The notes beneath the pieces were generated by a model that saw only the letters and a program-made list of their open reading frames with translations, searched no databases and was not told the origin of the DNA. This document shows, one piece after another, positions 1 through 29,438 of a stretch of 30,835 bases of DNA. Made by a program: the position numbers and the translations under genes. This stretch comes from a virus. The number at the start of each line of letters is the position of its first letter. The stretch's first letter is position 1. The stretch spans positions 120,001 through 150,835 of IMG/VR virus record IMGVR_UViG_3300015608_001846; one strand, given 5' to 3'.

Positions 1-1359
1 AAAGCAACATCCGAAGGTCGACGACGAGCATTCATCGATGGAGATATCGTCGCCTGGAATAAAGGTCTGACCAAGGACAATGATCCCAGGGTCGCAGCAG
101 CCGCCGTAGCTCAACAACAGCGATTCGAGGCTAAAGACGTTCGACCTTGGGCTGAAGGCAAGACTGAAGCGGGTGATGAATGCATTCTTCGAAAAAACAA
201 TGCACTTCGAAAAAGGTACGCCAAAGGAGAGCTTGAACCTTGGTACAAGGGAAAGACGATCGCGTCTGAACCTCGATTAGAAAAACTCTGGCAACACCGT
301 GATCCTGTCAAAGAGTATGCTGGTATCCGATGGACGGATGATGAGATCAGGGGAAAACTTGCAGGGAACATGCAACTCATCCTGCAAGACATCGACGGTT
401 ACAGAAATGATCGGATCCCGGCGCTGGTTGTCATGTGCAGGACGTGCAGTGAAACATCGAAGGTTTCACTTGTCTTTGCAAGAAACGATCGCTGCCATCG
501 ATGTAACCCTACGAGCTCGGCCGGTCAGAATCAGATCGCTGATTGGTTGGAATCACTGGGACTCAAGGTCGGTCGCAATGTCAAGGGCATCATCGGAAAT
601 CGTCAAGAGCTTGACGTATACGTTCCTTCGCACAAGCTAGCGATCGAATTCAATGGACTCTATTGGCACAATGAAGCAGGTGGTAAGGGACCCAAGTACC
701 ATCAAAATAAGTCGAATCGGTGCGCTGAACTCGGGATCACACTGCAACATGTCTTCGAAGACGAATGGTATGAACGACCTGACATCGTCAAATCGATGAT
801 CATGCATCGACTGTCAATGACACCCAAGCGTACTTCTGCTCGTAAGTGCAATCTTCGTGAGGCAACGATCGATGAACGTCGAACGTTCTTCGAAGCAAAT
901 CACATTGATGGTGATGTGCCTTCAACGAAGGCATGGTGCCTCGTCGACGAAGAAGAGATCGTAGCGTGTATCTCGATACGAAAACCGTTTCACAAATCAC
1001 AAAGCAAATTGATCGAAATCGCTAGGTTTTCGACCAAAACGTACACTTCTTGCGCCGGCGCCCTAAGCAGATTGATGCGATGTGTGGTTGCATACACTCT
1101 AGAACACAAGCTCGCGGGAGTGATGACGTACGTTGACACACGCTTCGGTAATCGAGGAAAAGGTTACTGTAGCGCAGGTATGACATTCACAAAAGAAACA
1201 GAACCTAGGTTCTGGTGGACAGACAACCACCATCGATTCAATCGATTCAAGTTTCGAGCCGACAGAGGGAGGCAGATGTCAGAAGCTCAGGTCGCAGAAG
1301 CTGCTGACGTCGTCAAGATCTGGGGTTGCAAGAATCTTGTGTACCAAATCAACGTCTGA
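1..1359 (+). CDS. Homing-endonuclease-like protein, 5'-partial (Vsr/DUF559-type PD-(D/E)xK-fold nuclease core plus uncharacterised C-terminal domain)
   Basis: Frame 1 is open from base 1 through the listed ATG at 370 to TGA 1357-1359, so the gene enters from the left edge. It has repeated W-x-[KE]-G-[LK]-T motifs (AWNKGLT, PWAEGKT, PWYKGKT) and a CRTC..CHRC zinc-ribbon pair. The nuclease signature ELDVYVPSHKLAIEFNGLYWHNE is shared with ORFs 11695-12612, 25950-26699 and 29440-30835. It is the only credible plus-strand gene and is convergent with all neighbours. Confidence 0.6.
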   Translation, partial: KATSEGRRRAFIDGDIVAWNKGLTKDNDPRVAAAAVAQQQRFEAKDVRPWAEGKTEAGDECILRKNNALRKRYAKGELEPWYKGKTIASEPRLEKLWQHRDPVKEYAGIRWTDDEIRGKLAGNMQLILQDIDGYRNDRIPALVVMCRTCSETSKVSLVFARNDRCHRCNPTSSAGQNQIADWLESLGLKVGRNVKGIIGNRQELDVYVPSHKLAIEFNGLYWHNEAGGKGPKYHQNKSNRCAELGITLQHVFEDEWYERPDIVKSMIMHRLSMTPKRTSARKCNLREATIDERRTFFEANHIDGDVPSTKAWCLVDEEEIVACISIRKPFHKSQSKLIEIARFSTKTYTSCAGALSRLMRCVVAYTLEHKLAGVMTYVDTRFGNRGKGYCSAGMTFTKETEPRFWWTDNHHRFNRFKFRADRGRQMSEAQVAEAADVVKIWGCKNLVYQINV

Positions 1360-1436
1360 TCGTCAAGGGACCGGCGCCGGATCTCTTCCTTGATCAATCG
1401 CTTGAGGGTCGCCCCTGTCAACGTCTTCGACCTCAT
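1287..1436 (-). pseudogene. Truncated remnant of a paralog of ORF 1864-2184 (cassette gene B')
   Basis: ATG 1436 lies 1 nt after the stop of the upstream ORF, mirroring the intact pair at 2193/2184. The first 22 codons MRSKTLTGATLKRLIKEEIRRR parallel MKLTNATLKRLIKEELRRR, with many synonymous differences. Similarity ends at ~1371, 12 nt from the stop of the convergent HEG. Beyond that the frame runs antisense into the HEG. Confidence 0.5.
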
Positions 1437-1437
1437 C

Positions 1438-1829
1438 TCAAGGTTCCCAGATCTTGAACGTCTGAACGGCGCGCCAGCTGATTGTCCCAAACAGGATGCC
1501 GGAAGCTCTCGCCCGGAAGCTGTGGCCGTCGACATCAAGGTCAGTCGATGCGTCTAACAAGGCAAGGTCGCCCTGGACCGAACCCACCAACGAGATGTCG
1601 ACGCGTGTGATGGTGTCATTGACGATCTTGAACGTTGCATCCTTGACGACTTTTACGACGCTACCACCAGAATAACCAAAAACTCTCCCGTGACACTGAC
1701 AATGCAGTTGTCGAGGATGGGATCGAACCCTAGGTCGTCATTGATGTGAATCGAACTGATCGTCGTCAGTCCCGTGCCGCTAGCGTCACCGATATTTTGG
1801 TACGACTGAAAATCAGGGAGTCTCGCCAT
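1438..1829 (-). pseudogene. Frameshifted paralog of ORF 2193-2582 (cassette gene A')
   Basis: From ATG 1829 the frame reads MARLPDFQSYQ...LGFDPILDNCIVSVTGEFLVILVVAS and stops at 1653-1655. Shifting one base at the GG/TTTTT run (1676-1682) continues GYSGGSVVKVVKDATFKIVND...ISWRAVQTFKIWEP, with stop at 1438-1440. The whole is colinear with the intact copy (MRFPDFQSYQ...NGEFLGYSEGRIV...ISWRAVQTFKIWEP). Neither piece reaches the ORF-track cutoff as a complete gene. Confidence 0.6.
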
Positions 1830-1863
1830 TGTGTTGTTCTCTTGCTTGCCTTTCTTGAGAGTT

Positions 1864-2184
1864 TCACTTCACTGGTTTACGTGGCGGCGGGGGAGGCGCC
1901 TTCTTCTTGGCACGGTTGACATCGCCGCTGATGATCGATTGTGATTTTGAGTCGACGCTGAACGCCAGTCGCTCGGTGGCTGAGTGGATCTCCTTGATGA
2001 CGCTGATCTCGCTGTCGGTCTCAGCCTCCTGCAGGGCGCGTTGGAAGAAGTTATCGGCCTCCCACAGCTTGGTGATCCCCTGCTTCATGTAGCTGCCGAC
2101 CTCGGACCCAGGGTGCAGTTCGTGCAACCGACGACGAAGTTCTTCTTTGATCAGTCTCTTGAGCGTGGCGTTCGTTAGCTTCAT
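1864..2184 (-). CDS. Small protein with N-terminal LKRLIKEE helix motif and Pro-rich basic C-terminus (cassette gene B)
   Basis: ATG 2184 is preceded by GAGGGA; the longer 2205 start would overlap the upstream gene. The N-terminus is MKLTNATLKRLIKEELRRRL and the C-terminus is KKKAPPPPPRKPVK. Confidence 0.6.
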   Translation of the reverse strand: MKLTNATLKRLIKEELRRRLHELHPGSEVGSYMKQGITKLWEADNFFQRALQEAETDSEISVIKEIHSATERLAFSVDSKSQSIISGDVNRAKKKAPPPPPRKPVK

Positions 2185-2192
2185 TATGTCCC

Positions 2193-2582
2193 TCACGGTT
2201 CCCAAATCTTAAACGTCTGCACCGCACGCCAGCTGATGGCGCCGGCGGCGTGGCCGGATGCACGAGCACAAAACACGTGATCATCGACAACGATGTCTGT
2301 GGTGACACCCTTCAGTTCCGGATCGCAGTACGACGTCCCCGCCGGGTCGATCGACAACCTGACGACCTTGTCATCGACGATCCTGAAGACAGCCTCCTGC
2401 GTCACGTGGACGATTCGACCCTCACTGTAACCAAGGAACTCTCCGTTGACAACGACGACACAGTTGTCGAGCGGCGGATCAAACCCCAGACCAGAATTGA
2501 TGTGCCTAGCAACGATGGTCACCGGATCGGGTCCAGTGACAGTTAGGGTGCCTTGGTACGATTGAAAGTCAGGAAAACGCAT
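2193..2582 (-). CDS. Hypothetical beta-rich protein (cassette gene A)
   Basis: 129-aa ORF. Its stop at 2193-2195 is followed after 8 nt by the start of 1864-2184. It is the intact paralog of 1438-1829. No family recognised. Confidence 0.6.
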   Translation of the reverse strand: MRFPDFQSYQGTLTVTGPDPVTIVARHINSGLGFDPPLDNCVVVVNGEFLGYSEGRIVHVTQEAVFRIVDDKVVRLSIDPAGTSYCDPELKGVTTDIVVDDHVFCARASGHAAGAISWRAVQTFKIWEP

Positions 2583-2588
2583 TTTATC

Positions 2589-2765
2589 CTACGCTAGCGG
2601 GCACCAATCATCACACTCATCACCACATCCACATACCGGGCAGGTGGTTGTACCTGCATCGATGCCTTCTGATATGACGCTCGAGCCGTCCTCTTGCCTC
2701 TTTAAAAGGGCACGAGAAAACTCTTCGTCTATCAACCGTTGTAGCACCTTGCTAGTGATGATCAT
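2589..2765 (-). CDS. Small Cys-rich protein (58 aa) with N-terminal LQRLIDEE motif, below the ORF-track cutoff
   Basis: ATG 2765 is preceded by AAGGAA. It translates MIITSKVLQRLIDEEFSRALLKRQEDGSSVISEGIDAGTTTCPVCGCGDECDDWCPLA, with stop TAG 2589-2591. It fills the otherwise empty gap between 2582 and 2777. Confidence 0.5.
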   Translation of the reverse strand: MIITSKVLQRLIDEEFSRALLKRQEDGSSVISEGIDAGTTTCPVCGCGDECDDWCPLA

Positions 2766-2776
2766 TTATTCCTTGC

Positions 2777-3385
2777 TCAACCGCTGGGTTCCATCAGCCG
2801 GTGCAACACCTGCGTCACCTGCTCGACAAGAGCGTTGGTGAGCTCCTCGTCTGCTAGGACCTGTTTGACGATCTTGACCGCAAAGTACTCCACGTCCTCG
2901 TACCGTCCCGGTCGCGCCGCCGTCTCATCATCGATCGTACCCAATACGATCTCGTATGCATCTGCAGCAACGTCGCTCTGTTCTAGCTGCTTGGTCAGGC
3001 TGATGACCATCGCGCTAGAGATTGCATCCAACGTGTCGTCCAGGTGAGAGTTCGGGATCACTCCTTCAGACTCATCGAGACGACGATCGATCGTCTGTCG
3101 AATGATTCGACGCAACGATTCCTTCGTCAGTCGTTTGACCGGGCGACGCCCCTCGAGGACGTCAGCCTCAAGCAACGCAGGGCAACCGGGAGCGTGTGAA
3201 TCGGTGCCGCCGCAGTCGGGACAACGTTCATCGTCACGTCGTTTAGGTTCGTTGGTGACCCACCCACAGTTGCGGCAGTGACGACCGCGCTCGCCCGGTT
3301 CAACCTTGCGATACCCATAGTCAGCGCAACTTGCGCACACGCTGGTCACCGGATCAAACGCAGCTTCGTTCATTTTCTTCATCAT
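2777..3385 (-). CDS. Zinc-ribbon protein with internal LRRIIRQTIDRR motif and acidic helical C-terminal half
   Basis: The first ~70 aa carry the cysteine pairs CASC..CRNC and CPDC..C. AGGTGA lies next to the ATG pair at 3385/3382. It follows the sheath gene by 48 nt on the same strand. Confidence 0.65.
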   Translation of the reverse strand: MMKKMNEAAFDPVTSVCASCADYGYRKVEPGERGRHCRNCGWVTNEPKRRDDERCPDCGGTDSHAPGCPALLEADVLEGRRPVKRLTKESLRRIIRQTIDRRLDESEGVIPNSHLDDTLDAISSAMVISLTKQLEQSDVAADAYEIVLGTIDDETAARPGRYEDVEYFAVKIVKQVLADEELTNALVEQVTQVLHRLMEPSG

Positions 3386-3433
3386 TCACCTAACGATCAT
3401 TGACGTGTTGAACCCATCTGACCCCGCCAGCCG

Positions 3434-6400
3434 TCAAGGAACCTGGTTCAGGTTGTTGGCGACGGCAAAGTCAAGCGACACATATTCGATCGTCTTTGTC
3501 GGTTGGACAAAGATCTTTCCGCGGAGGGTGTTGTTCTCGATGTCAGCCTGTGTCGTCGTCGATGAATCAATGATGACCTTGAACTTCTCGAGGCCCGCCA
3601 GCGCCTGGATCCTCTGCAGGCGTGGGGTGATGGCATTCGAGAACTTGGCCAGTGTTGCCTCTCGGTTAGGTTCAAAGGTGATCGTGTGCGCAATGTCACG
3701 GACCTGTCGACGAATGTCAATCAGCAACCGACGAACGTTGACACGGTCGAGGGCGCTAGCGCCGGCCTGCAACGTCTTCTGACCCCAGACGATGACGCCA
3801 CCCTTTGGGTTGGTGCCAGACGAAGCGTTGCCAGGGAACGACACGATCGGATTGATGTTCACGTCGTACAACGTGTCCATGTTTTCCTTTTTCAACTGCA
3901 CACGAGCCTCAAGCGATGTCTGCAATGAACCTCGTGTGAAGCCTGCAGGAGCGAACCACGGGTGACCCAGCTTGTCATTGAGTGCCATCGCACCCAAGAC
4001 AACGACCGAAGGCGGCACGTATACGTTGGTCTTGGTCGTCGGATCCTGGATCAAAACATCCGGGAAGTAAGCAGCTGCGAAGCTGGTGTTCAGTGCACGT
4101 TCACTAAACTGCTGTGCTGTCAACTGGACAGACGGCAGCTGCGTATCGCTGACCACATCGTCACCCTGGTTGTCAAGCTGTTCGATGTCCATCAGGTACA
4201 GTGCATCGAACCTCTCTTCGACGGCATCCACGACGGCATTTGACACGATGGGGTGCCGGATACCCGGGATGACGAGCAGCTGCACATCAGCATTGACGAC
4301 GTTCTTCATGACGTCAAGCGCCTTCGCGAAGGCCCTGACCGACGGTCCATCGTTGCGACCGCGGTTGCCGTCGTTCATGTCAGCGACGACAGCGTTGTTG
4401 TTGATCTCAGACTCGTCTTTGTTGAAGATGTTGACACCGTCTGAACCGCCTTGCATCAAGAAGCTGTACTTCAGGAAGCGACGATTTGACTGGTTGAAGT
4501 CGTCGACTGTCACCTTACGTGTCTTGTTGGTTTCATCCGCCACGATGTTACCATCACGGACGTAAGTTGCCTGGTGCCACATGGTCGAGTCAGCGATGCC
4601 CGCTGAACTTGTCACCACTTTGATGTTTTCAAGCGTAAAGACGTTGCGACAGAAACGATCAGAATCTAACACTGAGTTCTCGGCAGTGTCTGGCGTCCCC
4701 GCGTTGTCACCTACGACGAAGTCTTGCAATGTCTCAAAGTGCGACGGGAAATAACCCGCAAACGCAGCCAACGATTTGTTCTGCAGGGTGCTGGCATTTG
4801 GTGTCGTCAAACTGGTGATGTGTTCGAACTGCACGCCCCAGTACAGCAGTGGGTTGAACGTTAACTTGGCGCCTGAACCTTGTGTGATGTTGCTTCGTAG
4901 CGGCAGGGGCGCCTCGACAGCACGTTTCAAGACCAGAGACGCTGTGATTTGCGATGACGTTGGGCTCGTCAACGGAGCAGAACCCGACGTGACCAGGTGG
5001 AGCGGGCCGCGAACACCGAAAGGTAACGCTGTAGGGTCGACTGACATGTTGTCGACCTCTTGCGAGACCTCGACCCTGATGAGGTTGGAGTTGTTCGGAT
5101 AGTTGCCATCGATGACGATCTTTTGGCTAGATTCCGCCCGATCCCAATCAAAGAAGATGTTCGCATCACCGATCACTTTGGCGATGTAGCGATCAGAACG
5201 TGGGTCCAGCGACAGGCCACGCCACTGTTCCAGGGGCTTGACAGATCCATCGTTGTCATCCCACTCCCTAACGATCAAATCAAAGCTACCGTACAGGTTC
5301 GACGGATCTGACGACGGAGCGATGTTCTCGATCGACAGCTTGAACAGGATCGAGACACCTGACCCAGCGTCGATAGCGTGCAAACGAAACAAGTTGGTCG
5401 CTTCGCCACCGAAACGCTGTGAAATGACCCACGGCGATCGAGCGTGAGAGTAGCGATCAGTCCATCCTTCATAGTTAGGCACGTAGCTGTTTCCGGTGTT
5501 CCTGGCAAGCGATGCCGTTGTCAAGAACGCAGCTGCTTCAGCTCCTGACTTTGAACCGCTGACGCCACCTGCACCAGAGACAGCATGTACCAAACCAGAA
5601 CCGGTGACGACCGCTGTCGACGGATGAACATCCCAGAAGGCATGCAAGTAGTGTCCCGCTTGTTGGTACTTCAACGGATCGCGATTCATGACGTTCGCAA
5701 AGTAATTTGGAGACGTCATGTCAAACGATGCCGTGATCACATTGGGATACAACGAATCTATTCCCTGGTGACCGTTCAACAGCATGACAAAGTCTTGCTT
5801 GGCGACCTGTCCATCAAGCAGAACGACAGAACCGATAAGACTGCCGCTAGCTGTCGTGTCAGTAGCAACTAACGTCGATGCGGGAGCTGAATTGATACCC
5901 TCCGCCGACGATGATAGACGCAAGATAACACCCGAAGGTGCCATGATAACGCCTCGGATGATCGGCACTGCAGTATTGACGCCAGCTGTCACGCTGCCTT
6001 GGCCTTGAAGGCCAGCGGCGCTGAAGACAGTCGAACCTGCAGACTCTGACATGAAAGCGCCTAAGAAATAGGTTCGGCCAGAGACGCTGAGGCTACCAGA
6101 GTTTGCATACGGGTTGCCAACCAGAGTGCCATCGCTGTCACGTGGTTGGTCCTCACCGACAGTGAAACCGGCTCGAGCGACTGACCCATCGGTCGACCGT
6201 CGACGACCGTCACCGACACCCAGGACGCGCAAGAAGGTTACTGCAGATGCATTACGCATCCACTCAGACACCGCAAGCGGACCAAACTTCTTGCCATCAG
6301 TCGGACCAAACTTGGCGTAAAAATCATCGACCAGGCCAACAGTGACCGGAACATAGGCAGGTCCCTTCAACGACGTGCCGATGACACCAGCAGGAACGCC

Positions 6401-6481
6401 GACCGGTTCCTGAGCGACCGGACCAGAAAGGTCGATCTCCTTTGCAGTCACGCCCGCGGAACCGAACTTTAATTGCGCCAT
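3434..6481 (-). CDS. Tail sheath protein, gp18-like, paralog 1 (1015 aa)
   Basis: The N-terminus reads EIDLSGPV..VGVPAGVIGTSLKGPAYVPV. The C-terminus reads WFAPAGFTRG..INPIVSF..WGQKTL..ALDRVNVRRLLIDIRR..KFKVIIDSSTTTQADIENNTLRGKIFVQPTKTIEYVSLDFAV. This parallels the T4 gp18 C-terminal domain (SPAGYNRG..INPV..YGDKT..DRINVRRLFN..YRVVCDTTNNTPSVIDRNEF..IQPARSINYITLNFV, recalled from memory). Confidence 0.88.
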   Translation of the reverse strand: MAQLKFGSAGVTAKEIDLSGPVAQEPVGVPAGVIGTSLKGPAYVPVTVGLVDDFYAKFGPTDGKKFGPLAVSEWMRNASAVTFLRVLGVGDGRRRSTDGSVARAGFTVGEDQPRDSDGTLVGNPYANSGSLSVSGRTYFLGAFMSESAGSTVFSAAGLQGQGSVTAGVNTAVPIIRGVIMAPSGVILRLSSSAEGINSAPASTLVATDTTASGSLIGSVVLLDGQVAKQDFVMLLNGHQGIDSLYPNVITASFDMTSPNYFANVMNRDPLKYQQAGHYLHAFWDVHPSTAVVTGSGLVHAVSGAGGVSGSKSGAEAAAFLTTASLARNTGNSYVPNYEGWTDRYSHARSPWVISQRFGGEATNLFRLHAIDAGSGVSILFKLSIENIAPSSDPSNLYGSFDLIVREWDDNDGSVKPLEQWRGLSLDPRSDRYIAKVIGDANIFFDWDRAESSQKIVIDGNYPNNSNLIRVEVSQEVDNMSVDPTALPFGVRGPLHLVTSGSAPLTSPTSSQITASLVLKRAVEAPLPLRSNITQGSGAKLTFNPLLYWGVQFEHITSLTTPNASTLQNKSLAAFAGYFPSHFETLQDFVVGDNAGTPDTAENSVLDSDRFCRNVFTLENIKVVTSSAGIADSTMWHQATYVRDGNIVADETNKTRKVTVDDFNQSNRRFLKYSFLMQGGSDGVNIFNKDESEINNNAVVADMNDGNRGRNDGPSVRAFAKALDVMKNVVNADVQLLVIPGIRHPIVSNAVVDAVEERFDALYLMDIEQLDNQGDDVVSDTQLPSVQLTAQQFSERALNTSFAAAYFPDVLIQDPTTKTNVYVPPSVVVLGAMALNDKLGHPWFAPAGFTRGSLQTSLEARVQLKKENMDTLYDVNINPIVSFPGNASSGTNPKGGVIVWGQKTLQAGASALDRVNVRRLLIDIRRQVRDIAHTITFEPNREATLAKFSNAITPRLQRIQALAGLEKFKVIIDSSTTTQADIENNTLRGKIFVQPTKTIEYVSLDFAVANNLNQVP

Positions 6482-6499
6482 CTCTATTCAACCTCGTGT

Positions 6500-6509
6500 C
6501 TAACTATTC
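6500..6509 (-). promoter_or_regulatory. GAATAGTTAG element 18 nt upstream of the sheath-1 start (variant of candidate late-promoter motif)
   Basis: The minus strand reads GGAATAGTTAGACACGAGGTTGAATAGAG-ATG. It shares GAATA[CG]TTA[CG] with the elements at 9669-9678 and 21746-21755. Confidence 0.3.
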
Positions 6510-6568
6510 CGAAATTAACGCTTTCACGCGTCGAACGCTAGAAGTGCATCAACGCCATCACTCATAAC

Positions 6569-6601
6569 GAACCTGCGTCAGTAAGCTACTGACGCAGGTT
6601 C
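6569..6601 (-). terminator. Perfect 15-bp stem / 3-nt loop hairpin between the two sheath genes (attenuator, terminator or RNA-stability element)
   Basis: cgaacctgcgtcagta-agc-tactgacgcaggttc. It lies 18 nt after the stop of 6619-9630 in the transcription direction. The downstream minus-strand tract CGUUAUGAGU is only weakly U-rich. Confidence 0.35.
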
Positions 6602-6618
6602 ATCAGATCGTATCGCTG

Positions 6619-9600
6619 TCAGACGAAGGCGATGCCGCTGCTTGTGATGATGAAATCAAGCGAGATGAATTCAATGACACGTGTTGGAACGATGACGACG
6701 CGGCCGCGCATGCGGTTAGCTTCGACATCCTCTTGCGTGTTGTTGGTTTCATTACAGACGACGCGGAACGTTTCGATACCAGCTTGGGCCTGGATCAGGC
6801 CAAGCTGCTGAACAGAGTCGCTAACAAACTTGTTCCTGACAGCCGGAGTGTTTTGATCGAACGCCAGCTTGTTAGCGATGCTGATGATGATTCGCTTGAC
6901 CTCAAGCAGCAAACGCCTGACGTTGACTCGATCCAAGGCTGACTTTGCAATCTGCAACGTCTTTTGCCCGTAGATGACATAACCCAACTTAGGGAACGTC
7001 GCAATGGGATTAATCCGCGAATCCTGCAGCCGATCACGATCAGGTACGCTGAGCCTGACCTCCACGTTTGTCACAAAGTCCAACGCAGCACGGTTGAAAC
7101 CAGCCGGAGCAAACCATGGGTAGGCTACTCGATCGTTGAAGGCCAACGCACCTAGCGCCGCCACAGACGCTGGTACCTTGACTCGTCGACGATTCGTCTT
7201 ATCGTCGATGAAAACGTTCGGAAAGTACGTTCCTGCGTAGTTGTTGTCGATGGCACGTGTATCGACAGCCGCGGCTGTCTTGTCCACGTCTGGCCTGTTG
7301 GTCGAGTCGTCATACAACCGTGTCGCTGTATCATCATATGACGGGATGTCCATGACGTAGAAGGCTAGGCCGTAATCACGAACCCGCTGCATCGCATAGT
7401 CGGTGATGAACGTCTCACGGATGCCTGGGACCGCCAAAACGTTGACGTTGACAGCCATCGGTTCCGTCATGATGTCGATCGCAGTGCGGTATGACATGAC
7501 GTTTGAGTTGTTCTGCCCGGTTCCATTCATGTTTGTCAACATGCCAGGCGAAACGTAGCTGGGTTCCGCGCCGCCCAGGGCATCGAACGACGTTGCCTTA
7601 TCGTTCATCCTGCGAGCGTCACGGTCGAGGAAATTGAGACCGTCGTAACCGCCAAACATCATGTTGGTGAACTTGGCGTACGGCGAGAACCTGTTAAAAT
7701 CGGGTGCTGTTCCCTTTGCCAGTAGCGTAGCAAACGTAATACGGTTACCGATGACACTGGGAATTGTGTAGCTGGCGAGGTCGATGTTAGCATCACGAAC
7801 GTAGGCCGCCTCACGCATGTGATCATTGATCGTACCCGTCAATTGTGAGATCGCTGTGTTCGAGAAGGCAACCTTGGCCAGAGTAAACTTGTTGTCATTG
7901 AACTGATCAGCGCCAGCGCCGGTGACCAAGACATCGAGCTTTTTGATGCCCATGAACTTGGTGAACGATTCAAGCAGGCGGTTCTTCTCGGTCGTGAGGT
8001 TTGGGTTCAACGGCGTCGTGTTACGTTCGAACTTGATTCCCCAATACAGTTGGGTCGTCGCTAGCTCAGTCGGCCCAGGCTGGCCTTGCCACGTTGCTGT
8101 GTTCGGGATCTCGCCTTTCGTTACCTTGAACCTGAACGGAACAGGGGGAAGGATCGATCCTGACAAGGCTGATCCAGAACTGATGCCAAGGACACCTGCC
8201 AGCCTTGGGTTCGACGGGGCCACATCTGTCAACAGATCATTTGTCTTGATGACTTCGATCCCGCGGAAGCCAAACGGCAACGCAGTTGCCGGGACCAGTG
8301 CTCGCTCAACAGCATCTGTCATGACGATCCTGACAAGCTTTGAAACGTTGTTGTAACGACCGAAGGTGACGATGCGGCGCTCGGAAGCGATGGTTGCGTC
8401 AAAGTTATAGGTGACCTTGCGATCACCGATCAGCTTGGCAACGTAGTTCTCTGCGTACGGATTGAGCGAACAGTTGGGGTACGACTCCAGGACGACTGGG
8501 GACGCATCTGTGTCGTTCCAGTCTCGGATCTGAACCGTAAACGTTCCATACTGATCTGATTCATCAAGCGATGCCTTGATGTTGGTGATCGAGATCTTGT
8601 AGAGCCTGTTAGCAAACTCTCCGTCGTCGATCGCCTCAAAGCTGAAGAGATCGTACTCAGTGGCACCGAAAGGTTGTGAGATAAACTTCGTCGTCTTGGG
8701 AGCGGTGAACCTGGTATCGTACGCACCGAAGGCCTTTCGCATCTCCAAAGAAGTGTTACCGGAGGAGGTGCTTGCACGAGCTGAGCCTGACAACACAGCG
8801 ACGACCGTCGCCGTTGCCAACTCATTGTCGACAGCAAAGTCTCCGTAGAGCAGGTGCTGTTCCTGCACCAATCGATCTGGATCCGTGTTTAAGACCTTAC
8901 CGAAGTAATCGGCGCTCGACGGATCGAACGATGCTGTCAAGATCTTAACGCCAGGGTTGTTGTCAGTATTGACAAATCCGTTACCCAACGTCGACGAGAT
9001 GACAAGCTTGAACTTACCGTTCACTGTCGTCGCAACGTCATCTGGACCCGCTGCAGTGAAGGCGCCGACGGCAGACTCGTTACCATCTAACACCATCATT
9101 CGCGCGCCCGAGGCCATCATCACCAAGCCTCGAACCAAGTTGACAGCTGCACCAGCATAAGACCGGTTGTCAGTGAACAGCGGCATACCGTAGGCCTCGT
9201 TAGCCTGCAAGGTGTGCTTGGCAACCAACATTTGGACAGCACCGGTGTGTCGTCCACGCGAGTCGTGCGCGGCGATGTTACCATCAAGGTAAAACCCAGC
9301 ATACTTGACACGACCGGTGGCATCAGACGTTGCGATGTCAGTCTCAGTTGCGTTGCCGCCCGCTCCTAGAACACGCAAGAACGTCAATGCAGACCGATGT
9401 GTCAGGTACTCCTTGACAGCATACGGGCCTGGACGCTTTTGATCAAGGTCACCAAAGATTGCTGAAAATTCATCAAAATTTGCCACCGTGACTGGAACAA
9501 AGGCGGGACCTTTGTTAGAAGTACTGATGACGCCCGCGGGGGTGCCGACTGGTCCGGTCAAGCGCGGCGCCGACAGATCGATCTCACGCTGGTAGAAGTT

Positions 9601-9630
9601 GGGTGACCTAAAAGTCTGTTCTTGAGGCAT
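6619..9630 (-). CDS. Tail sheath protein, gp18-like, paralog 2 (1003 aa)
   Basis: AGGAGAG RBS lies 7-8 nt before the ATG. The N-terminus is EIDLSAPRLTGPVGTPAGVISTSNKGPAFVPV. The C-terminus reads WFAPAGFNRA..INPIATF..YGQKTL..ALDRVNVRRLLLEVKR..FRVVCNETNNTQEDVEANRMRGRVVIVPTRVIEFISLDFII. It is clearly paralogous to 3434-6481 along its full length. Confidence 0.88.
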   Translation of the reverse strand: MPQEQTFRSPNFYQREIDLSAPRLTGPVGTPAGVISTSNKGPAFVPVTVANFDEFSAIFGDLDQKRPGPYAVKEYLTHRSALTFLRVLGAGGNATETDIATSDATGRVKYAGFYLDGNIAAHDSRGRHTGAVQMLVAKHTLQANEAYGMPLFTDNRSYAGAAVNLVRGLVMMASGARMMVLDGNESAVGAFTAAGPDDVATTVNGKFKLVISSTLGNGFVNTDNNPGVKILTASFDPSSADYFGKVLNTDPDRLVQEQHLLYGDFAVDNELATATVVAVLSGSARASTSSGNTSLEMRKAFGAYDTRFTAPKTTKFISQPFGATEYDLFSFEAIDDGEFANRLYKISITNIKASLDESDQYGTFTVQIRDWNDTDASPVVLESYPNCSLNPYAENYVAKLIGDRKVTYNFDATIASERRIVTFGRYNNVSKLVRIVMTDAVERALVPATALPFGFRGIEVIKTNDLLTDVAPSNPRLAGVLGISSGSALSGSILPPVPFRFKVTKGEIPNTATWQGQPGPTELATTQLYWGIKFERNTTPLNPNLTTEKNRLLESFTKFMGIKKLDVLVTGAGADQFNDNKFTLAKVAFSNTAISQLTGTINDHMREAAYVRDANIDLASYTIPSVIGNRITFATLLAKGTAPDFNRFSPYAKFTNMMFGGYDGLNFLDRDARRMNDKATSFDALGGAEPSYVSPGMLTNMNGTGQNNSNVMSYRTAIDIMTEPMAVNVNVLAVPGIRETFITDYAMQRVRDYGLAFYVMDIPSYDDTATRLYDDSTNRPDVDKTAAAVDTRAIDNNYAGTYFPNVFIDDKTNRRRVKVPASVAALGALAFNDRVAYPWFAPAGFNRAALDFVTNVEVRLSVPDRDRLQDSRINPIATFPKLGYVIYGQKTLQIAKSALDRVNVRRLLLEVKRIIISIANKLAFDQNTPAVRNKFVSDSVQQLGLIQAQAGIETFRVVCNETNNTQEDVEANRMRGRVVIVPTRVIEFISLDFIITSSGIAFV

Positions 9631-9668
9631 TACCGTGCTCTCCTGTGTCGGTGTTAAGAACCGCTACA

Positions 9669-9678
9669 GTAAGTATTC
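9669..9678 (-). promoter_or_regulatory. GAATACTTAC element, candidate phage (late) promoter, 38 nt upstream of the sheath-2 ATG
   Basis: The exact 10-mer gtaagtattc (plus strand) recurs at 21746-21755. Both copies have an identical 38-nt spacing to the start codon of a major structural gene. Confidence 0.35.
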
Positions 9679-9698
9679 ATCGCGCAGATGAAAGCTGG

Positions 9699-10997
9699 TT
9701 ACGGCATGTCTTCTGTCGCGATGATCGATAGGCCTCCCAGGTCAGGCGTCGCTGACATGACAGTCTCACCGGTGAAGCGATTCGTCGTCACCACACGTGC
9801 GTAGCTCTCGGTGCGGTTACCTCGAGCATCGACACCGGTGATCTTACGGTAACGTGCAGGCGCAGCCCTGCCCAAGGCTTTGATCGCGGGATCGTCTGGG
9901 TTGTCGACTCCGGGACCTGGATATAGCCGCGTCGATCCATCATCACGAGCATCCCGGCGGCGTGGACGCTCGCCGGTGAGAGGTAACGTCGGATCGTCGG
10001 CACCCAAAAATGCAGGTTCGCCTTCGCCCAGAGAATCATCAGCAAGTGTCGGATCGACGCCCACGTCAAACGAGACGGTCGGTACTGAAACGTAACGTTT
10101 GATTGGAACGGGAGCACCCGGGACACGTGAAGCAAGGATGTAACCTAGAACCTTGACAGTGAACTTGTGTTTGATGATCCTCTCTTCGTTCGACATGTCA
10201 TCGACGTTGGTCTCAGCTGTGTAGACGTTTTCGTCGACGTGTGCCATGAACCAATATCCCTTAGGCGTCTCAAGCCTCCATGACTGTCCTTGTGGCAGGA
10301 ACGAACTGATCAGCTGCTCCAACAGCTGGACCATCTGAACTGTGTACTGCGTCCAAAACGTCACTTCGTACGTTGCTGTGTAGAACTGAGGTGAGGGGAC
10401 CACGATGGTCTCATAGACATTTCTTTGTCGATCAGCTAACAACAATCCACCTGATCGAACGACTGGGTCCTGTGCCAGGTCACCCAACTCTCGGCCGGGT
10501 GACACCGAACCGTCGTTAGTGGGTTCGACGAGCCCTTCTTGATTCGGAATCAACAATCGATTGATAAGCCGTTGGTACTGACGGTCCGATTTGTCTAGCC
10601 TGCGCTGGATGTGTATCTCACCGGTCTGCTGGTTTATCCCTCTACCGGTGATGTCATTGGGTCCAGATTGTTCGATCGACGTCCTGACGACAGTGATCAA
10701 CGGTAGGATCAACGTGTTGTTCCTGTCACGCAATGCGCGAGTTCGCTTCTGCAACGCCCACTTCTCACCCGACGCAAAGATGACTGGGACTCGAGAGTTG
10801 CCCGTTGACGTCTCTTGGTTCGAGGAGACCGTAAACTCGATCTCTTTATCAAACAACTTGAACAACGAACTGTCGACGTCTTCAATTCCCACGGCTGGGA
10901 TCGACAAATCGACAGGCGAAGAGTCAACACCGTACCCAGAAGGTAGGCCCGCCACTCCAAACCGTGACTGGCTGTTAGCGTTAAACCTCGTCGCCAT
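9699..10997 (-). CDS. gp15-like tail sheath stabiliser / tail terminator protein
   Basis: It lies directly upstream of the sheath genes. The segments VPVIFASGEKW, LILPLITVVRTS, YEVTFWTQYTVQMVQLLEQLISSFLP and IIKHKFTVKVLGYI parallel T4 gp15 (IRVPITYASKEHF, ILPRINLHL, YELSIFTRYEDDMFQIVEQILPYFQP, RIEWSLTFEVNGWMY, from memory). It is longer than T4 gp15 through a Pro/Asp/Arg-rich C-terminal extension. Confidence 0.65.
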   Translation of the reverse strand: MATRFNANSQSRFGVAGLPSGYGVDSSPVDLSIPAVGIEDVDSSLFKLFDKEIEFTVSSNQETSTGNSRVPVIFASGEKWALQKRTRALRDRNNTLILPLITVVRTSIEQSGPNDITGRGINQQTGEIHIQRRLDKSDRQYQRLINRLLIPNQEGLVEPTNDGSVSPGRELGDLAQDPVVRSGGLLLADRQRNVYETIVVPSPQFYTATYEVTFWTQYTVQMVQLLEQLISSFLPQGQSWRLETPKGYWFMAHVDENVYTAETNVDDMSNEERIIKHKFTVKVLGYILASRVPGAPVPIKRYVSVPTVSFDVGVDPTLADDSLGEGEPAFLGADDPTLPLTGERPRRRDARDDGSTRLYPGPGVDNPDDPAIKALGRAAPARYRKITGVDARGNRTESYARVVTTNRFTGETVMSATPDLGGLSIIATEDMP

Positions 10998-11007
10998 TCA
11001 TTAGTAC

Positions 11008-11682
11008 CTATTCGTCATAGAATGCGCTGCCGTGGTGTGAATCGTCAGCCAACGCTCCCCGCTCTGAGACCTCACGAGGACCGGTCAGCGGAGCGTCTAA
11101 CACACCGTTCCGTTGCAGGTCACGTACGTCTCCTGTCGGACCTTCTGAGTTCTCCACCTGTCCACGTTGCTGCACAAACGTCTTCTGAACTGCGTCTGCA
11201 TCGGTGTTGGTGATGTCAGTCGGGCCGTGTAACAACTCGCTGAACTGCCCCTCACGTGCCTTGGTCCCGACGACCTTGACGCCGGCCTTGTTTTCAGCCT
11301 GTCCGTAGATGTTCTTGACGATCGTCGAATCAGCGATCTCATAGAACACATCGTTGAAGGAAAAAAAGTCGCCGATGCAAACGTTGATCCCCTTGTCGGC
11401 CAGGTCACGGTACTGGATGAAGACCTCGAGCCTGTACTGCTGGTCGATGCCAAACTGGTTGACCTTCGTCTCGCTTTGGAACACGGCGTCGACCATTGCA
11501 TCGATGGCAATCGGATTGTCGAACACTTTCTTGATCGATTCATTGTAGACATCGTGTGCCAATGTCTTCAGCTCTGAGATCGGATAGTAGTAGACCTTGG
11601 CTCCGTTAACATCCTTGATCACTTCTTTGGTGATGTCAGAGATGAAGTTGAGCTCACGTGGAGTGATGAAGAGTCGAGCCAT
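11008..11682 (-). CDS. gp14-like neck protein (assignment mainly by synteny)
   Basis: It sits between the gp13-like and gp15-like genes, as in T4-type neck modules. The pattern ITKEVIKDV.G..VYYYPIS...T.AHDVYNESIKK...GDFFSFNDVFYEI resembles gp14-family proteins as I recall them. Confidence 0.5.
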   Translation of the reverse strand: MARLFITPRELNFISDITKEVIKDVNGAKVYYYPISELKTLAHDVYNESIKKVFDNPIAIDAMVDAVFQSETKVNQFGIDQQYRLEVFIQYRDLADKGINVCIGDFFSFNDVFYEIADSTIVKNIYGQAENKAGVKVVGTKAREGQFSELLHGPTDITNTDADAVQKTFVQQRGQVENSEGPTGDVRDLQRNGVLDAPLTGPREVSERGALADDSHHGSAFYDE

Positions 11683-11694
11683 GGACGAGCCTAA

Positions 11695-12612
11695 TTAGGC
11701 ATCCGGATCATTCTTGAACTCGGCGTCAGTGATCCGAATGAAACGCAGGCCCTCGGCGTCAAACCAGGCATCCTGCTGACGATCGACGAGCCATTTTCGA
11801 TAGATCCCCATGTCACGGCGATGACCCGACATTCCTGACTCTCTGATCAATTCGATGGGTCGATCGAGGCCGTGCCAGTAGACGCCGTCGAATTGAACGT
11901 ACGTGTCGATGCTCTTGATGTGAAAATCGATCGACCAGCGCTTGTTCATGACGACCTGGCGTTCGACATCATCTTCACCAAATTTCTCGCAGAGCAACTC
12001 ATAGAACGCGTTCTCGGGTTTCGATTGAAACAACGTTCCCTCGCGGGCGCGCTTGTGCAGGACCTCAGCTGCGTGTTCAGCGTTCATCTGATGGTACGGC
12101 ACCCCGTACTTTGCGATCGTACCTGAGATCATTGCCTCGCGGACGTGGACGAGCTGCATCGGGTATTTGACGCCCCAGTTCTTGATCATCGTTGCCTGAC
12201 GTTTTTTGACGATGTCAGGATGTGTTTGAGGATGATCTCCAAAGTTAGCGCGCATCGTCTGCATTGCTTTCGTTCGAACTTCAATCGACGATGGACCCTG
12301 CTCAACACCGTACTTCTTTTTCCACGTAGAACGCATCTTTTGCTTGCATGGCTCAGCCGCGAATGGATTTTCAGCACCGTAGCGTTCTACACAGGTTGCA
12401 GCCCGTTGACGCTCAATCACACCACCATTCTTGTGAGCAATGCTCTTGCATGCCTCAGAACAAGTGTGCACTTTTGTGTGTTTAGCATCAGCTATTGAGC
12501 CACGTGTTTCCCACTCAATGCCGCACACATCACATCGCAAACAAAGAACATTGTGTTTGAAAGATCTACCCAAGCGATCAACTCGAACACCAACCTTCAC
12601 ATCATAAAGCAC
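11695..12612 (-). CDS. Free-standing homing-endonuclease-like protein (zinc motif + YG repeats + Vsr/PD-(D/E)xK-type nuclease core)
   Basis: GTG start. It has an N-terminal cysteine cluster CLRCDVCG..HTCSEAC and degenerate repeats RYGAENPF, KYGVEQGP, NWGVKYPM, KYGVPYHQ. The C-terminal core is SIDFHIKSIDTYVQFDGVYWHGLDR. It is inserted between the gp13-like and gp14-like genes. Confidence 0.65.
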   Translation of the reverse strand: MLYDVKVGVRVDRLGRSFKHNVLCLRCDVCGIEWETRGSIADAKHTKVHTCSEACKSIAHKNGGVIERQRAATCVERYGAENPFAAEPCKQKMRSTWKKKYGVEQGPSSIEVRTKAMQTMRANFGDHPQTHPDIVKKRQATMIKNWGVKYPMQLVHVREAMISGTIAKYGVPYHQMNAEHAAEVLHKRAREGTLFQSKPENAFYELLCEKFGEDDVERQVVMNKRWSIDFHIKSIDTYVQFDGVYWHGLDRPIELIRESGMSGHRRDMGIYRKWLVDRQQDAWFDAEGLRFIRITDAEFKNDPDA

Positions 12613-15365: not shown

Positions 15366-16042
15366 CAGAACACCGTACCAAAAAACAACGCATTTGACAC
15401 TGAATCAGCAGGCAGCACCACCAACAGCTGCACGGCGCTGGGCCACTCTGCAGTGCCGGTCCAAGAGGCCGAATAGACGCCCGGTGTTGTCAAGATCTGG
15501 TGACTGGCGCCTGCTGAACGAAAATCAGCAAGCATGTTGCTCTCTTCTACCTGAGGGAAGGTGGCTGCCTGCGTCCCCGGCTGATACTCGGCTATGAATG
15601 CATCGAGCAGTGCTGCATTCGCATATGGGACCGTGATCGTCGTAGAGAAAAACGTGATGTTCGAACGGTATGAGCCACCGTTAGACGCAACCGGGTTGTC
15701 CTTCACACCTGCAAACGAGGCGACGGTCAGCTTGATCCGGTCACCAGACGGAATGATCGCTGCTGCGGCAGTGTACGTGCCTGCAGCGGGGAGCTGCGAC
15801 TCACGGAGGTAATAGAATGAGACGCGCTTTGATGCATCAGTGTGGGTCGCAGTCGTGTATGGTATCATCTGCACACCGTTGTACGTGCAGCTGAGGACGT
15901 TGAGGGCCGAAGGACCAGAGAACGACGTTGTGTGGACCCAAGCGATGACGATGCGATCGGAACCCGACGCTAGGGTGTGTGAAACTGAGACGCTGGGTGC
16001 TGTTCCCTCGACCTGTGCCGATGAATCGTACGTGATAGTCAT
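15365..16042 (-). CDS. Hypothetical fibre-block protein (beta-sandwich-like composition, possible distal or receptor-binding component)
   Basis: TAATG overlap with the upstream fibre gene. 225 aa, Ser/Thr/Ala-rich. Function not assignable from sequence alone. Confidence 0.55.
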   Translation of the reverse strand: MTITYDSSAQVEGTAPSVSVSHTLASGSDRIVIAWVHTTSFSGPSALNVLSCTYNGVQMIPYTTATHTDASKRVSFYYLRESQLPAAGTYTAAAAIIPSGDRIKLTVASFAGVKDNPVASNGGSYRSNITFFSTTITVPYANAALLDAFIAEYQPGTQAATFPQVEESNMLADFRSAGASHQILTTPGVYSASWTGTAEWPSAVQLLVVLPADSVSNALFFGTVF

Positions 16043-16830
16043 TACGCAAAGTTCAAGCTAGCAACACCGAAGTACTGGTTGCCGTTGTAGTAAAAAGTAC
16101 AGATGTCGATCTTACCAGAGCCGCTGGATAGCGTGGGAGCGCTAGCACCAGCCCACATGGCGATGCTAGCTGACGGCCACTGGATGCCGAACGGCCCTCC
16201 CGTCGGCCCCTGCACGATCCTCAGCAGGTAGTTGCCTACGTTGGGTGGGTTTGCTCCTGATGCAAAGGACGCTGTCACCGATGCCGTCAGTGTCAGGACC
16301 TGTTTTTGGCCATTGTTCCAATTGATCGTAGTCTGCCCACCACAGTTTCCGTTATCATACTCACGATCAAATCCGATCGTCTTGGCTGAACGGATCGATG
16401 AGCTGACCAAGCTGATGCCAGCTGACGCTGACACGGGACCCGTGAACGCGGCGCCTGTCAACATCGCAACGATGCTGTTGTCGACGCTGATGACATACGT
16501 TGATCCGGCACCACCGTCGACGACAACGATACCCGTCCCAGGAGTCAACACACGTTCGTTGGTCAACGTGCTGTCGGTCGACAACACAAGGTACTGAGCA
16601 CCTGCGGGTGCACCTGCACCGGCCTGAGCCCAATCTGTGTTAGCGTCAGTCCTTCGATAAAGAGCACCAGAAGCGATGTTCCAGAACAACTCACCAGGCG
16701 TCGGATCGCTAGGAAACAGGTTGCCCGATGGAACCAGCAGCTTACCTCCGGCAATGCGATCAAACGCAATGATGCCGGTGTGTCGCTTGTTAGAAGAGTC
16801 ATCGATGGCAACGTGAACGATTTCGATCAT
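16042..16830 (-). CDS. Tail fibre-like protein, short paralog
   Basis: ATGA overlap with the upstream gene; GGAGGG RBS. The N-terminal ~75 aa (VHVAIDDSSNKRHTGIIAFDRIAGGKLLVPSG..FPS....ELFWN..SGALYRRTDANTDW) are shared with 16827-17963 and 17963-19087. It contains the fibre repeat LTNERVLTPGTGIVVVDGGAGSTYVISVD. Confidence 0.7.
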   Translation of the reverse strand: MIEIVHVAIDDSSNKRHTGIIAFDRIAGGKLLVPSGNLFPSDPTPGELFWNIASGALYRRTDANTDWAQAGAGAPAGAQYLVLSTDSTLTNERVLTPGTGIVVVDGGAGSTYVISVDNSIVAMLTGAAFTGPVSASAGISLVSSSIRSAKTIGFDREYDNGNCGGQTTINWNNGQKQVLTLTASVTASFASGANPPNVGNYLLRIVQGPTGGPFGIQWPSASIAMWAGASAPTLSSGSGKIDICTFYYNGNQYFGVASLNFA

Positions 16831-22518: not shown

Positions 22519-22839
22519 TCAACCACCGTGCGACTTGATGGCACGTTCCTGTCGTTGTGCAGCGGCCTTTGATGCATGCGTCCCAAGACGTCGACGCTTG
22601 CCGCCCTTGCGGCCTTTGGTGTAGAGGCACCACTGTGACCCACAGCGACGAATGATCTCACTGACCAGGTCGCGGATCAACGATCGCACCTCATCGAGTC
22701 GTTCATTGTCGGACGATGCATCATCGGTTCCGTCAGCAGTCGTCAACGTCATCGACCCCCTCGACGAGGGCGCTCGATAACCAAGACTGGTGCCTGATGT
22801 AGCCGCCGTCTTTGCTTGCTCGTTTTTTCTGGGTGGCAT
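22519..22839 (-). CDS. Hypothetical small basic protein
   Basis: 106 aa. It has an internal RLDEVRSLIRDLVSEIIRR helix resembling the LKRLIKEE motif, and a basic C-terminus KGRKGGKRRRLGTHASKAAAQRQERAI. Confidence 0.5.
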   Translation of the reverse strand: MPPRKNEQAKTAATSGTSLGYRAPSSRGSMTLTTADGTDDASSDNERLDEVRSLIRDLVSEIIRRCGSQWCLYTKGRKGGKRRRLGTHASKAAAQRQERAIKSHGG

Positions 22840-29147: not shown

Positions 29148-29438
29148 TCAGACGATCCGAACGCTTCTAACAGCAACAGGGTAGTCTTCATTGTTCACGA
29201 CAACGTTCAACAGGCTATCATGAACAATGCCCTCAATCTCTCCTGTGACCCCGCCACCTTTGAGTGCAGAAACAAGCGCACCTTTGACAGCGTCGATCCC
29301 GTGTTCGAGCACTGCATCAGTCGCATCGATCTCAAGCTGAATCGATAGAGTGATGTTTGAAGACGTCGACTCGAGCTCTTCTTTGATGATGGAACGCAAT
29401 TGACGCTGTGAGATCCGGATATGCATTTGTTTATGCAT
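29148..29438 (-). CDS. Small protein with N-terminal LRSIIKEELE motif
   Basis: The preferred start ATG 29438 lies 1 nt after the upstream TAG (29440-29442). The listed 29501 start would overlap the upstream gene by 60 nt. The N-terminus is MHKQMHIRISQRQLRSIIKEELEST. Confidence 0.55.
   Translation of the reverse strand: MHKQMHIRISQRQLRSIIKEELESTSSNITLSIQLEIDATDAVLEHGIDAVKGALVSALKGGGVTGEIEGIVHDSLLNVVVNNEDYPVAVRSVRIV

Follow-up and report, generated by a model that had tools for sequence, protein, structure and literature searches.

The window analysed here is a 30,835-nt stretch of viral DNA (IMG/VR record IMGVR_UViG_3300015608_001846, positions 120,001-150,835), and the element under study is a short leader peptide encoded at the start of several of its small genes. 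A sequence-only reading of the window had listed six copies of a helix with the pattern L-x-R-(L/I)-I-x-E-E-(L/I), mostly at extreme N-termini. A six-frame scan with the strict expression L.R[LI]I.EE[LIF] gave matches at 2163, 2744 and 1406 only, and LRSIIKEEL lies at 29399. Every copy in the window is encoded on the minus strand, in frame with its gene, and the genes are tightly packed. The candidate copies are listed below, with three further leader genes of the same phage located on L001 and L146 (ORF, open reading frame; HMM, hidden Markov model).

1864..2184, minus strand: leader gene, 106 aa (MKLTNATLKRLIKEELRRRL...); leader residues 1-16 at nt 2137-2184; strict match, 24.1 bits
2589..2765, minus strand: leader gene, 58 aa (MIITSKVLQRLIDEEF...), with a Cys-rich C-terminus; leader at nt 2718-2765; strict match
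29148..29438, minus strand: leader gene, 96 aa (92 aa from a start at 29426), leader IRISQRQLRSIIKEEL at nt 29373-29420; 20.5 bits, or 27.4 bits with an IMG/VR HMM
1287..1436, minus strand: remnant leader ORF (MRSKTLTGATLKRLIKEEIRRR...), a truncated paralog of 1864-2184; leader at nt 1380-1427; 17.2 bits (alignment of 1287-1860 with 1864-2600)
2777..3385, minus strand: 202-aa protein; Cys-rich repeats resembling zinc ribbons at the N-terminus, a degenerate leader inside the protein (KRLTKESLRRIIRQTI, nt 3089-3136), and a C-terminal part that is helical and acidic
22519..22839, minus strand: 106-aa protein, not a member of the leader family; -0.4 bits, weak phrog_3684 match
L001:16117-16488: leader gene MKITQQQLRQIVKEEI; 28.1 bits
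L001:15785-16120: leader gene; 8.6 bits
L146:6497-6766: leader gene, 89 aa, MKLTSQLIKKLIDEEV; in the head module

The N-termini of the window were scored with an HMM built only from 15 leaders of LR756508.1, a complete 484-kb genome of an uncultured phage that was analysed whole; the model is independent of the window, and its null 95th percentile of the maximum is 7.6 bits. It gave the scores listed above for the copies at 2184, 29438 and 1436, and 6.5 bits for that at 2765. In a six-frame scan its top five matches were the first five of the six claimed copies, and off-frame matches all stayed at or below 1 bit. Three of the copies (2184, 29438 and the 1436 remnant) are therefore strong and two (2765 and the internal copy at 3115, 3.3 bits, fifth best in the scan) are weak, while the sixth, at 22519-22839 (RLDEVRSLIRDLVSEIIRR), was rejected on its score of -0.4 bits. 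About 1e-4 matches to the strict pattern are expected by chance in the 9,350-aa window proteome, and none of 5,000 residue shuffles reached the observed two to three. The regions after the motif are unrelated, as had been proposed, with no BLASTP match of E<1 between window cargos, and codons differ among the copies, which agrees with conservation of the peptide and not of a DNA repeat.

The copies at 2184 and 2765 start at Met-1, and that at 29438 carries an extension of two to six residues. The 106-aa protein joins the leader to a helical cargo with a Pro/Lys-rich tail. Its gene is called on 21 contigs; an ortholog (P0002, 62% identical) retains the leader, and a word-indexed protein search with the 106-aa protein returned only itself and one ortholog. 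The 58-aa leader is borderline, its 6.5 bits lying below the null percentile; the 58-aa gene is called on public contigs and its protein (P0245) was matched at E=5.7e-8, partly as a self-match, in the search of 1.84e9 proteins described below. For the 96-aa protein, a single-sequence AlphaFold2 (AF2) model was of low confidence and uninformative (pLDDT, predicted local distance difference test, 59.6). The 202-aa protein probably arose when a leader gene fused to an ORF upstream of it; no internal start codon precedes its copy at 3115, where the preceding Val is encoded by GTC.

The copies at 1436 and 2184 had been counted separately. Both are real, yet the first is a paralogous pseudogene of the second: 1287-1830 duplicates the module 1864-2582, so the two are not independent. 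The features concerned are as follows.

1287..1830, minus strand: degraded tandem copy of the two-gene module 1864-2582, disrupted by a frameshift; mean column identity 71%, with an indel
2193..2582, minus strand: 129-aa gene, leaderless, module partner of the 106-aa leader gene; no Pfam or PHROG match
1..1359, plus strand: homing endonuclease, 3' part of a 576-aa gene called in L001; phrog_3339, E=1.7e-71

In the duplicate, ORF 1653-1829 is similar to the N-terminus of the 129-aa protein and ORF 1438-1590 to its C-terminus, and the duplicate abuts the 3' end of the convergent 576-aa homing-endonuclease gene.

The leader is real and general well beyond the window. IMG/VR was scanned with the pattern [LIFMV]-[TS]-x3-[LF]-x2-I-I-K-E-E-[LIFMV], back-translated to degenerate DNA; the matches listed comprise at least 170 instances at no fewer than 120 loci, many with two to four instances, and all IMG/VR counts and fractions given here refer to these listed matches. 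The consensus is MKITKxQLKQIIKEEL (16 residues). The leader (M-K-[IL]-T-K-x-Q-L-[KR]-Q-I-I-K-E-E-[LI]) begins at Met-1 in 140 of the 170 instances, on ORFs with a median length of 110 aa. Positions left free in the search pattern are conserved as well (K2 in 89%, K5 in 73%, and Q7/R7, K9/R9 and Q10). The conserved block spans residues 1-16, and information falls after residue 16-22 into an E/D/G/P-rich stretch. Beyond residue 20, the cargo of 136 proteins separated into 126 BLAST clusters, so that the portable leader on unrelated cargo described for the window recurs across IMG/VR. Scattered cargo domains include AAA_33/polynucleotide kinase, GNAT, FliG_C and DUF3008, and tandem arrays (three to five leader genes) are common, as are fusion ORFs with two to three leaders.

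No common family was found for the window proteins or for 140 of the IMG/VR leader proteins in Pfam, PHROGs or NCBIfam. Full-text literature searches returned no relevant paper containing the leader strings, and nothing on the motif under leaders of jumbo phages that resemble capsid-targeting sequences (CTS). The family is large and apparently undescribed, in line with the statement that it was not recognised, and by their sequences the window copies are diverged members of it. A control scan of 185,579 cellular genomes with the same DNA pattern gave 122 single instances, 12 of which have a start codon at -2; about eight of these 12 are canonical, all on contigs of metagenome-assembled genomes. 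The leader is restricted to viruses. In tblastn searches of 50,697 phage records, the window version had no match and the consensus matched only LR756508.1.

A profile built from four window copies only was searched against 1.84 billion representative proteins and gave 134 matches at E<=0.001, the canonical MKITK... proteins among them reaching E=5e-9. Of the 134, 119 have two or three copies of the leader in a single ORF, an excess that is partly a threshold effect, as a single copy is rarely significant. In multi-leader ORFs (P0244, P0246, P0249, P0252, P0254, P0260, P0261 and L097:365-955) the internal copies keep their Met, and the residues before them resemble a translated ribosome-binding site. 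Such ORFs could be fused tandem genes, nested translation units or polyproteins processed by a protease.

The leader is predicted to be helical, with a hydrophobic stripe at positions 3, 8, 11, 12, 16 and 19/20, and AF2 gives a helix across part of it at low confidence. The helix proposed for the window thus stands as a prediction, while the word amphipathic is weakly supported: the hydrophobic moment of the leader (0.28-0.50) is not significantly above shuffles. A Sec/Tat signal or transmembrane anchor was rejected, as the leader has no long hydrophobic core and a charged or polar residue every two to three positions (K5, Q7, K9, Q10, K13, E14, E15).

The phage of the window carries at least seven leader genes with unrelated cargo. 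Its head module was reached through the capsid gene on contig L146, which is 99.4% identical to the window across their overlap. The gene order on L146 is portal (with a putative intein), 292 aa, Peptidase_S77 (214 aa), 135 aa, 146 aa, the 89-aa leader gene, 169 aa, a 630-aa scaffold-like protein and a gp23-type major capsid protein (MCP, 635 aa), followed by a homing endonuclease/methylase (660 aa), the 96-aa leader gene of the window (29148-29438) and Pyr_excise. The protease (PF03420) lies at L146:4843-5487, and the capsid protein belongs to PF07068. The 89-aa leader gene therefore lies between the protease and the MCP, and the 96-aa leader gene just past the MCP gene, from which it is separated only by the homing-endonuclease/methylase insertion (as seen on L144 and L146). 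The leader cluster at 3385-1287 is flanked by the second sheath gene on one side and by the tail-tube gene (L001:12679-13167, 49% identical to the tube protein of Microcystis phage Mel-JY01) on the other, and two further leader genes stand between the tube gene and a T4_baseplate-family gene. The position of these two is syntenic with the leader cluster at 218-220 kb of LR756508.1.

Peptidase_S77, of the T4 gp21 type, is present in all three lineages considered: the window phage, LR756508.1 and an abundant marine lineage (E=1.2e-33). In all three, leader genes gather around the TerL, portal, protease and MCP genes, in the region of head and late genes. Both LR756508.1 and the marine lineage encode a gp23-type capsid protein as well. 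The family found most often next to the IMG/VR leader genes, with 150 neighbours considered, is that of the head maturation protease (phrog_207/3014), which corresponds to Pfam Peptidase_S77. A conserved module seen in 11 loci reads TerL, portal, 270 aa, 190 aa, 100 aa, leader genes, protease, one to three leader genes, a 140-aa protein and bS21. A head-module marker was found by tblastn in 60 of the 120 loci (TerL in 47, portal in 46, protease in 22), and where a locus includes the protease gene, no more than 1 kb separates it from the leader genes in 21 of 29 cases. The remaining loci carry genes for DNA polymerase B, ribonucleotide reductase (RNR), GroEL, UvsX, SbcCD and primase.

LR756508.1 shows the enrichment in related genomes that had been proposed as a check, with about 24 leader genes in all, 17 of them N-terminal matches at 8 bits or more against none in shuffles. 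Nearly all lie within 143-244 kb: one directly after TerL, five between a 276-aa homolog and the protease, with three more past the latter, eight from the MCP to a neck gene, and three after the tail tube. The 85-kb TerL-to-baseplate region, 17.6% of the genome, holds six of the seven leader clusters (binomial P=1.8e-4) and 15 of the 16 strong leader genes, eight of which flank the protease.

Positions 1-12184 of the window are 100% identical to ENA contig ERZ27282949:k141_2353102 (322,887 bp), and megablast of 12 kb of the window against the 50,697 phage records gave no nucleotide match. By its sheath protein, the closest cultured relative is Mel-JY01 (35% identity), followed by LR756508.1. 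The real genes of the window are all on the minus strand and include two tail-sheath paralogs, a gp15-like protein, a neck protein, tail-fibre paralogs, an endolysin and several homing endonucleases.

3434-6481 and 6619-9630, minus strand: two tandem tail-sheath paralogs (1015 and 1003 aa); phrog_23, E=8.5e-53 and 2e-49

The leader-gene cluster is immediately preceded by the sheath pair, and the tail-tube gene follows it just beyond the window. A tandem pair of about 1000-aa sheath genes also occurs independently in LR756508.1 (202.5-204.9 kb and 205.9-208.4 kb), and Mel-JY01 has a single sheath gene in the region examined; it would be unusual for a tail to consist of two sheath proteins. At 16042-19087, three paralogous tail-fibre-like genes (262, 379 and 374 aa) stand in a row and have N-terminal and central segments in common. 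At least five homing-endonuclease-like genes lie in these 31 kb (1-1359, 11695-12612, 22878-23657, 25950-26699 and 29440-30835), one of them of the GIY-YIG type. The last, a 660-aa endonuclease-methyltransferase fusion inserted between the MCP gene and the 96-aa leader gene, runs off the window. Directly downstream of that leader gene, at 28606-29088, is a 160-aa gene with the Pfam mark Pyr_excise, a pyrimidine-dimer glycosylase like T4 denV.

Several further features of the head modules were observed. The portal gene of the window phage (L146:1-3933) encodes more than 1310 aa, which suggests that it contains an intein. The portal (145.7-149.5 kb) and prohead protease (156.5-158.2 kb) of LR756508.1 each match in separated pieces, suggesting introns, inteins or inserted endonucleases. 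A bS21 gene is located inside the head-morphogenesis module of the marine lineage, Mel-JY01 and LR756508.1, between the protease and capsid genes (L027:3208-3411; L131:21155-21382; about 169.7 kb in LR756508.1). A conserved 135-155-aa protein encoded directly downstream of the protease (L146:6002-6442; L027:3411-3827 and homologs; L131:20676-21140) has a leader-like N-terminus, a likeness without statistical significance. In the window phage, where the start codon is GTG, it reads MKMTRIELKMIVKECL; the marine version is MNKxELKKxLKPLIKECIKEV.

T4 offers the nearest parallel to this arrangement. The first 10 residues of T4 IPIII suffice for incorporation in the prohead core, and gp21 removes this leader; T-even phages carry diverse, poorly conserved internal proteins with only the CTS in common (PMC9026906, PMC3012670, PMC5694885), and their internal-protein loci have the same architecture of arrays with one leader on unrelated cargo (PMC3012670, PMC9026906). 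As in T4, where the CTS is 10-20 residues long, the leader described here is short and N-terminal, one phage places it on several genes with unrelated hypervariable mature parts, and it occurs in small gene arrays of phages with a Peptidase_S77 protease and contains an L/I-X-E site. It is longer than the T4 CTS, however, with a conserved block of 16 residues; it is far more widespread, spanning a marine lineage and phages of 300-480 kb, a single genome holding up to about 24 such genes; its genes are often right beside the protease, TerL or MCP genes; and it also occurs in two to three copies per ORF. The sequence of the T4 CTS is MKTYQEFIAE, and the two have in common only the MK start and a phi-x-E end. 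We therefore regard the leader as a probable CTS-like leader of T4-type phages, and not as a member of the T4 CTS family by sequence.

T4 gp21 cuts after L/I-X-E (PMC9026906), and the gp23 propeptide it removes is 65 residues long (PMC5694885). When MCP sequences (L146:9308-11215, L071:6327-8183 and LR756508.1 171.9-173.5 kb) were aligned at the T4 gp23 site FLTE65/A (the slash marks the bond), the corresponding residues were QVLKE/S in the window phage, QLLKE/A in LR756508.1 and marine L071, and QLISE/A in Mel-JY01. The leader core, QIIKE/E, has the same Q-phi-phi-K-E as the aligned MCP maturation site, and so looks like the capsid protein's own processing site. The suggestion that the core fits the L/I-X-E preference of the prohead protease is consistent with the presence of I-K-E in the leader.

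On this basis, a T4-CTS-like propeptide that targets proteins to the prohead and is removed at I-K-E is a reading to which we give about even odds, drawing on genomic context and analogy. Under such a reading, T4-like phages with a gp21-type (Peptidase_S77) protease would equip many unrelated small proteins with a portable N-terminal element of about 16 residues, M-K-[IL]-T-x3-L-[KR]-x-[IL]-I-K-E-E-[LI], which is a predicted helix and leads into a poorly conserved linker rich in acidic residues, Gly and Pro. Late in infection the leader would dock its cargo on the prohead core (scaffold, portal or inner shell) before shell closure. The prohead protease would then cut after the Glu of [LI]-K-E, probably at I-K-E14/E15, freeing the cargo inside the head, where it may stay as an internal or ejected protein or, as an accessory core protein, be cleared. 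We infer the steps of docking, packaging and cleavage. The internal copies in ORFs with two to three leaders fit a docking-plus-cleavage module better than a signal confined to the N-terminus. Of the explanations considered, the capsid targeting suggested in the sequence-only reading is the best available.

A number of observations weigh against this propeptide. The leader HMM scored 0 bits or less against T4 gp67, gp68, gp21, gp22, gp23, gp24, alt.-1 and alt.-2 (T4 IPI-III were outside the comparison). Protease specificity in the leader phages is deduced solely from the MCP alignment. In diverged copies of LR756508.1, E15 is kept more often than E14, a pattern that a structural role would explain no less well than E14 in the P1 position. 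Leader genes lie beside DNA polymerase, RNR, GroEL, SbcCD or primase genes at about 38 of the 120 IMG/VR loci, and amid sheath, tube and baseplate genes in the window and LR756508.1. No cultured phage with a canonical leader was found among the 50,697 records. Mel-JY01 has the same head module with no canonical leader in its whole genome, which implies that the leader is dispensable for head assembly; its sole marginal leader-like N-terminus (MEPKKFIEIIRAVIREEIKK, PP395634.1 162463) scored 12.5 bits against a null 95th percentile of 9.8. That gene lies just upstream of the tail lysozyme gene. Derivation of the leader from the N-terminus of the conserved 140-aa head-module protein was also considered, and neither HMM nor hhalign comparison was significant.

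The arrangement around the protease can be read in another way, with the leader proteins as accessory prohead-core or scaffold components like T4 gp67 and gp68, and the leader as a helix for oligomerisation or coiled-coil formation, by which the core is built or sized with no need of cleavage, rather than a tag that routes retained cargo into the virion. Marine leader genes flank the protease in the slots of T4 gp67/gp68 and gp22; many cargos are short, charged and of low complexity, with Ala/Lys/Glu-rich tails like those of core proteins; in the 89-aa protein of the window phage an acidic stretch is followed by a coiled-coil-like one; and T4 gp67 has an internal DLIKEEK. Similarity of the leader to gp67, gp68 or gp22 was not significant, however, and these proteins were rejected as homologs. 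Core components would also have to accommodate extreme cargo diversity, including enzyme domains (polynucleotide kinase/AAA_33, GNAT), and a copy number of about 24 in LR756508.1 against none in Mel-JY01, and a separate gp22-like scaffold gene is already present. We consider this explanation unlikely. Slightly less probable again is a leader unrelated to the virion, acting as a late-expressed interaction helix for a phage or host chaperone, the inner membrane or a protease adaptor, in the last case as an N-terminal degron that times turnover. The leader genes outside head modules, by DNA polymerase, RNR, GroEL, SbcCD and primase genes, speak for it, as do the GroEL encoded by some of these phages, the predicted hydrophobic stripe and a strict N-terminal position that suits a degron. 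It is opposed by the placing of six of the seven LR756508.1 clusters in the structural region, the tight adjacency to the S77 protease gene, the match of the leader core to the MCP cleavage site and the retention of internal copies in fusion ORFs. The missing hydrophobic core, which leaves neither a Sec/Tat signal nor a transmembrane anchor, and a hydrophobic moment not above shuffles also argue against it.

Two further explanations were considered. Conservation could act on the nucleic acid, as a translation-initiation region or a homology patch for recombination of cargo cassettes, with little function left to the peptide. The A-richness of codons 2-5, where K2 is AAA in 84% of genes (background 65%) and residue T4 (Thr) is mostly ACA, is typical of efficient starts, and the arrays, fusions and degraded duplicates point to frequent recombination at leader genes. 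Yet synonymous codons vary freely where the peptide is invariant (six codons for L8; ATT, ATC and ATA for I11/I12), codons differ among the window copies, no conserved upstream DNA or promoter cassette was found at leader genes, and the peptide pattern is kept in genomes of 40% and 53% GC; we judge this account improbable. The idea that a common helical sequence recurs by chance, or that the copies are recent paralogs of a single genome, would draw on the paralogy of 1436 and 2184, on the weakness of 2765, 3115 and 22519, and on the commonness of charged helices of this kind. It is already refuted for the core copies by the expectation of 1e-4 strict matches, by the recovery of window copies at 17-28 bits with an HMM from an independent genome, by the instances in IMG/VR, mostly N-terminal, and by the 134 matches at E<=0.001 among 1.84e9 proteins, and we give it next to no credence.

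The leader was also compared with targeting peptides from more distant systems. Encapsulation peptides of bacterial microcompartments (BMC) consist of a terminal amphipathic helix of 15-20 residues, in which hydrophobic and polar residues alternate, then a poorly conserved linker to the cargo (PMC4594438), and so resemble the leader in length, terminal position, predicted helix, linker and portability across diverse cargo. They differ in having no conserved sequence and remaining uncleaved, where the leader has a strongly conserved sequence and a viral context; the hydrophobic moment of the leader is, as noted, not significantly above shuffles. No BMC shell genes were among the neighbour-family matches of leader genes, the neighbours being phage structural and replication genes. 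Encapsulin cargo-loading peptides likewise are short terminal peptides that direct diverse cargo, into a shell of the HK97 fold. They are C-terminal, Gly/Pro-rich, extended rather than helical, uncleaved and cellular; the likeness to the leader is that of a short terminal peptide on diverse cargo. Head and ejection proteins of phages phiKZ, 201phi2-1 and SPN3US have N-terminal propeptides mostly longer than 100 residues, cut at A/S/G-X-E (PMC5694885, PMC9026906). These are also giant phages with a gp21-related protease that cuts after Glu, paralogous head proteins have identical N-termini (SPN3US gp53/gp54), and the propeptides have a proposed role in prohead targeting. In contrast, the leader block is only 16 residues with Ile or Leu at P3 of the candidate site, and these giant phages belong to another lineage, without T4-like gp23, sheath or baseplate synteny and with no leader common to dozens of genes.

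We conclude that the leader probably directs its carrier proteins into the assembling virus head, as judged by analogy with T4; if so, packaged proteins become recognisable from sequence alone. Proteins that are packaged and ejected arrive at the host before any other phage weapon, as with T4 IPI, which acts against a restriction system, and Alt, which acts on host RNA polymerase. To our knowledge, such proteins of uncultured phages are almost impossible to recognise. A broader proposal, which we advance only tentatively and with less confidence than the propeptide itself, is that MKITKxQLKQIIKEEL serves as a general capsid-interior address label in a very large uncultured T4-like clade comprising the ocean lineage and the 300-480-kb phages. 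Labelled proteins would be packaged, clipped and injected with the DNA, the label would mark hypervariable first-wave effectors (anti-defence, host-takeover), and multi-leader ORFs would be polyproteins cut into several packaged products. Whatever its mechanism, the leader is among the most conserved peptide elements of these phages, present on more than 100 unrelated proteins in genomes of 40-53% GC and without annotation in Pfam, PHROGs or NCBIfam. Should it prove to be a propeptide for capsid targeting, candidates for packaging could be listed by a simple profile search in many genomes of marine and huge phages, the contents of giant-phage heads would become a directly testable question, and a second, naturally diversified tag would be at hand for loading foreign proteins into T4-like capsids.

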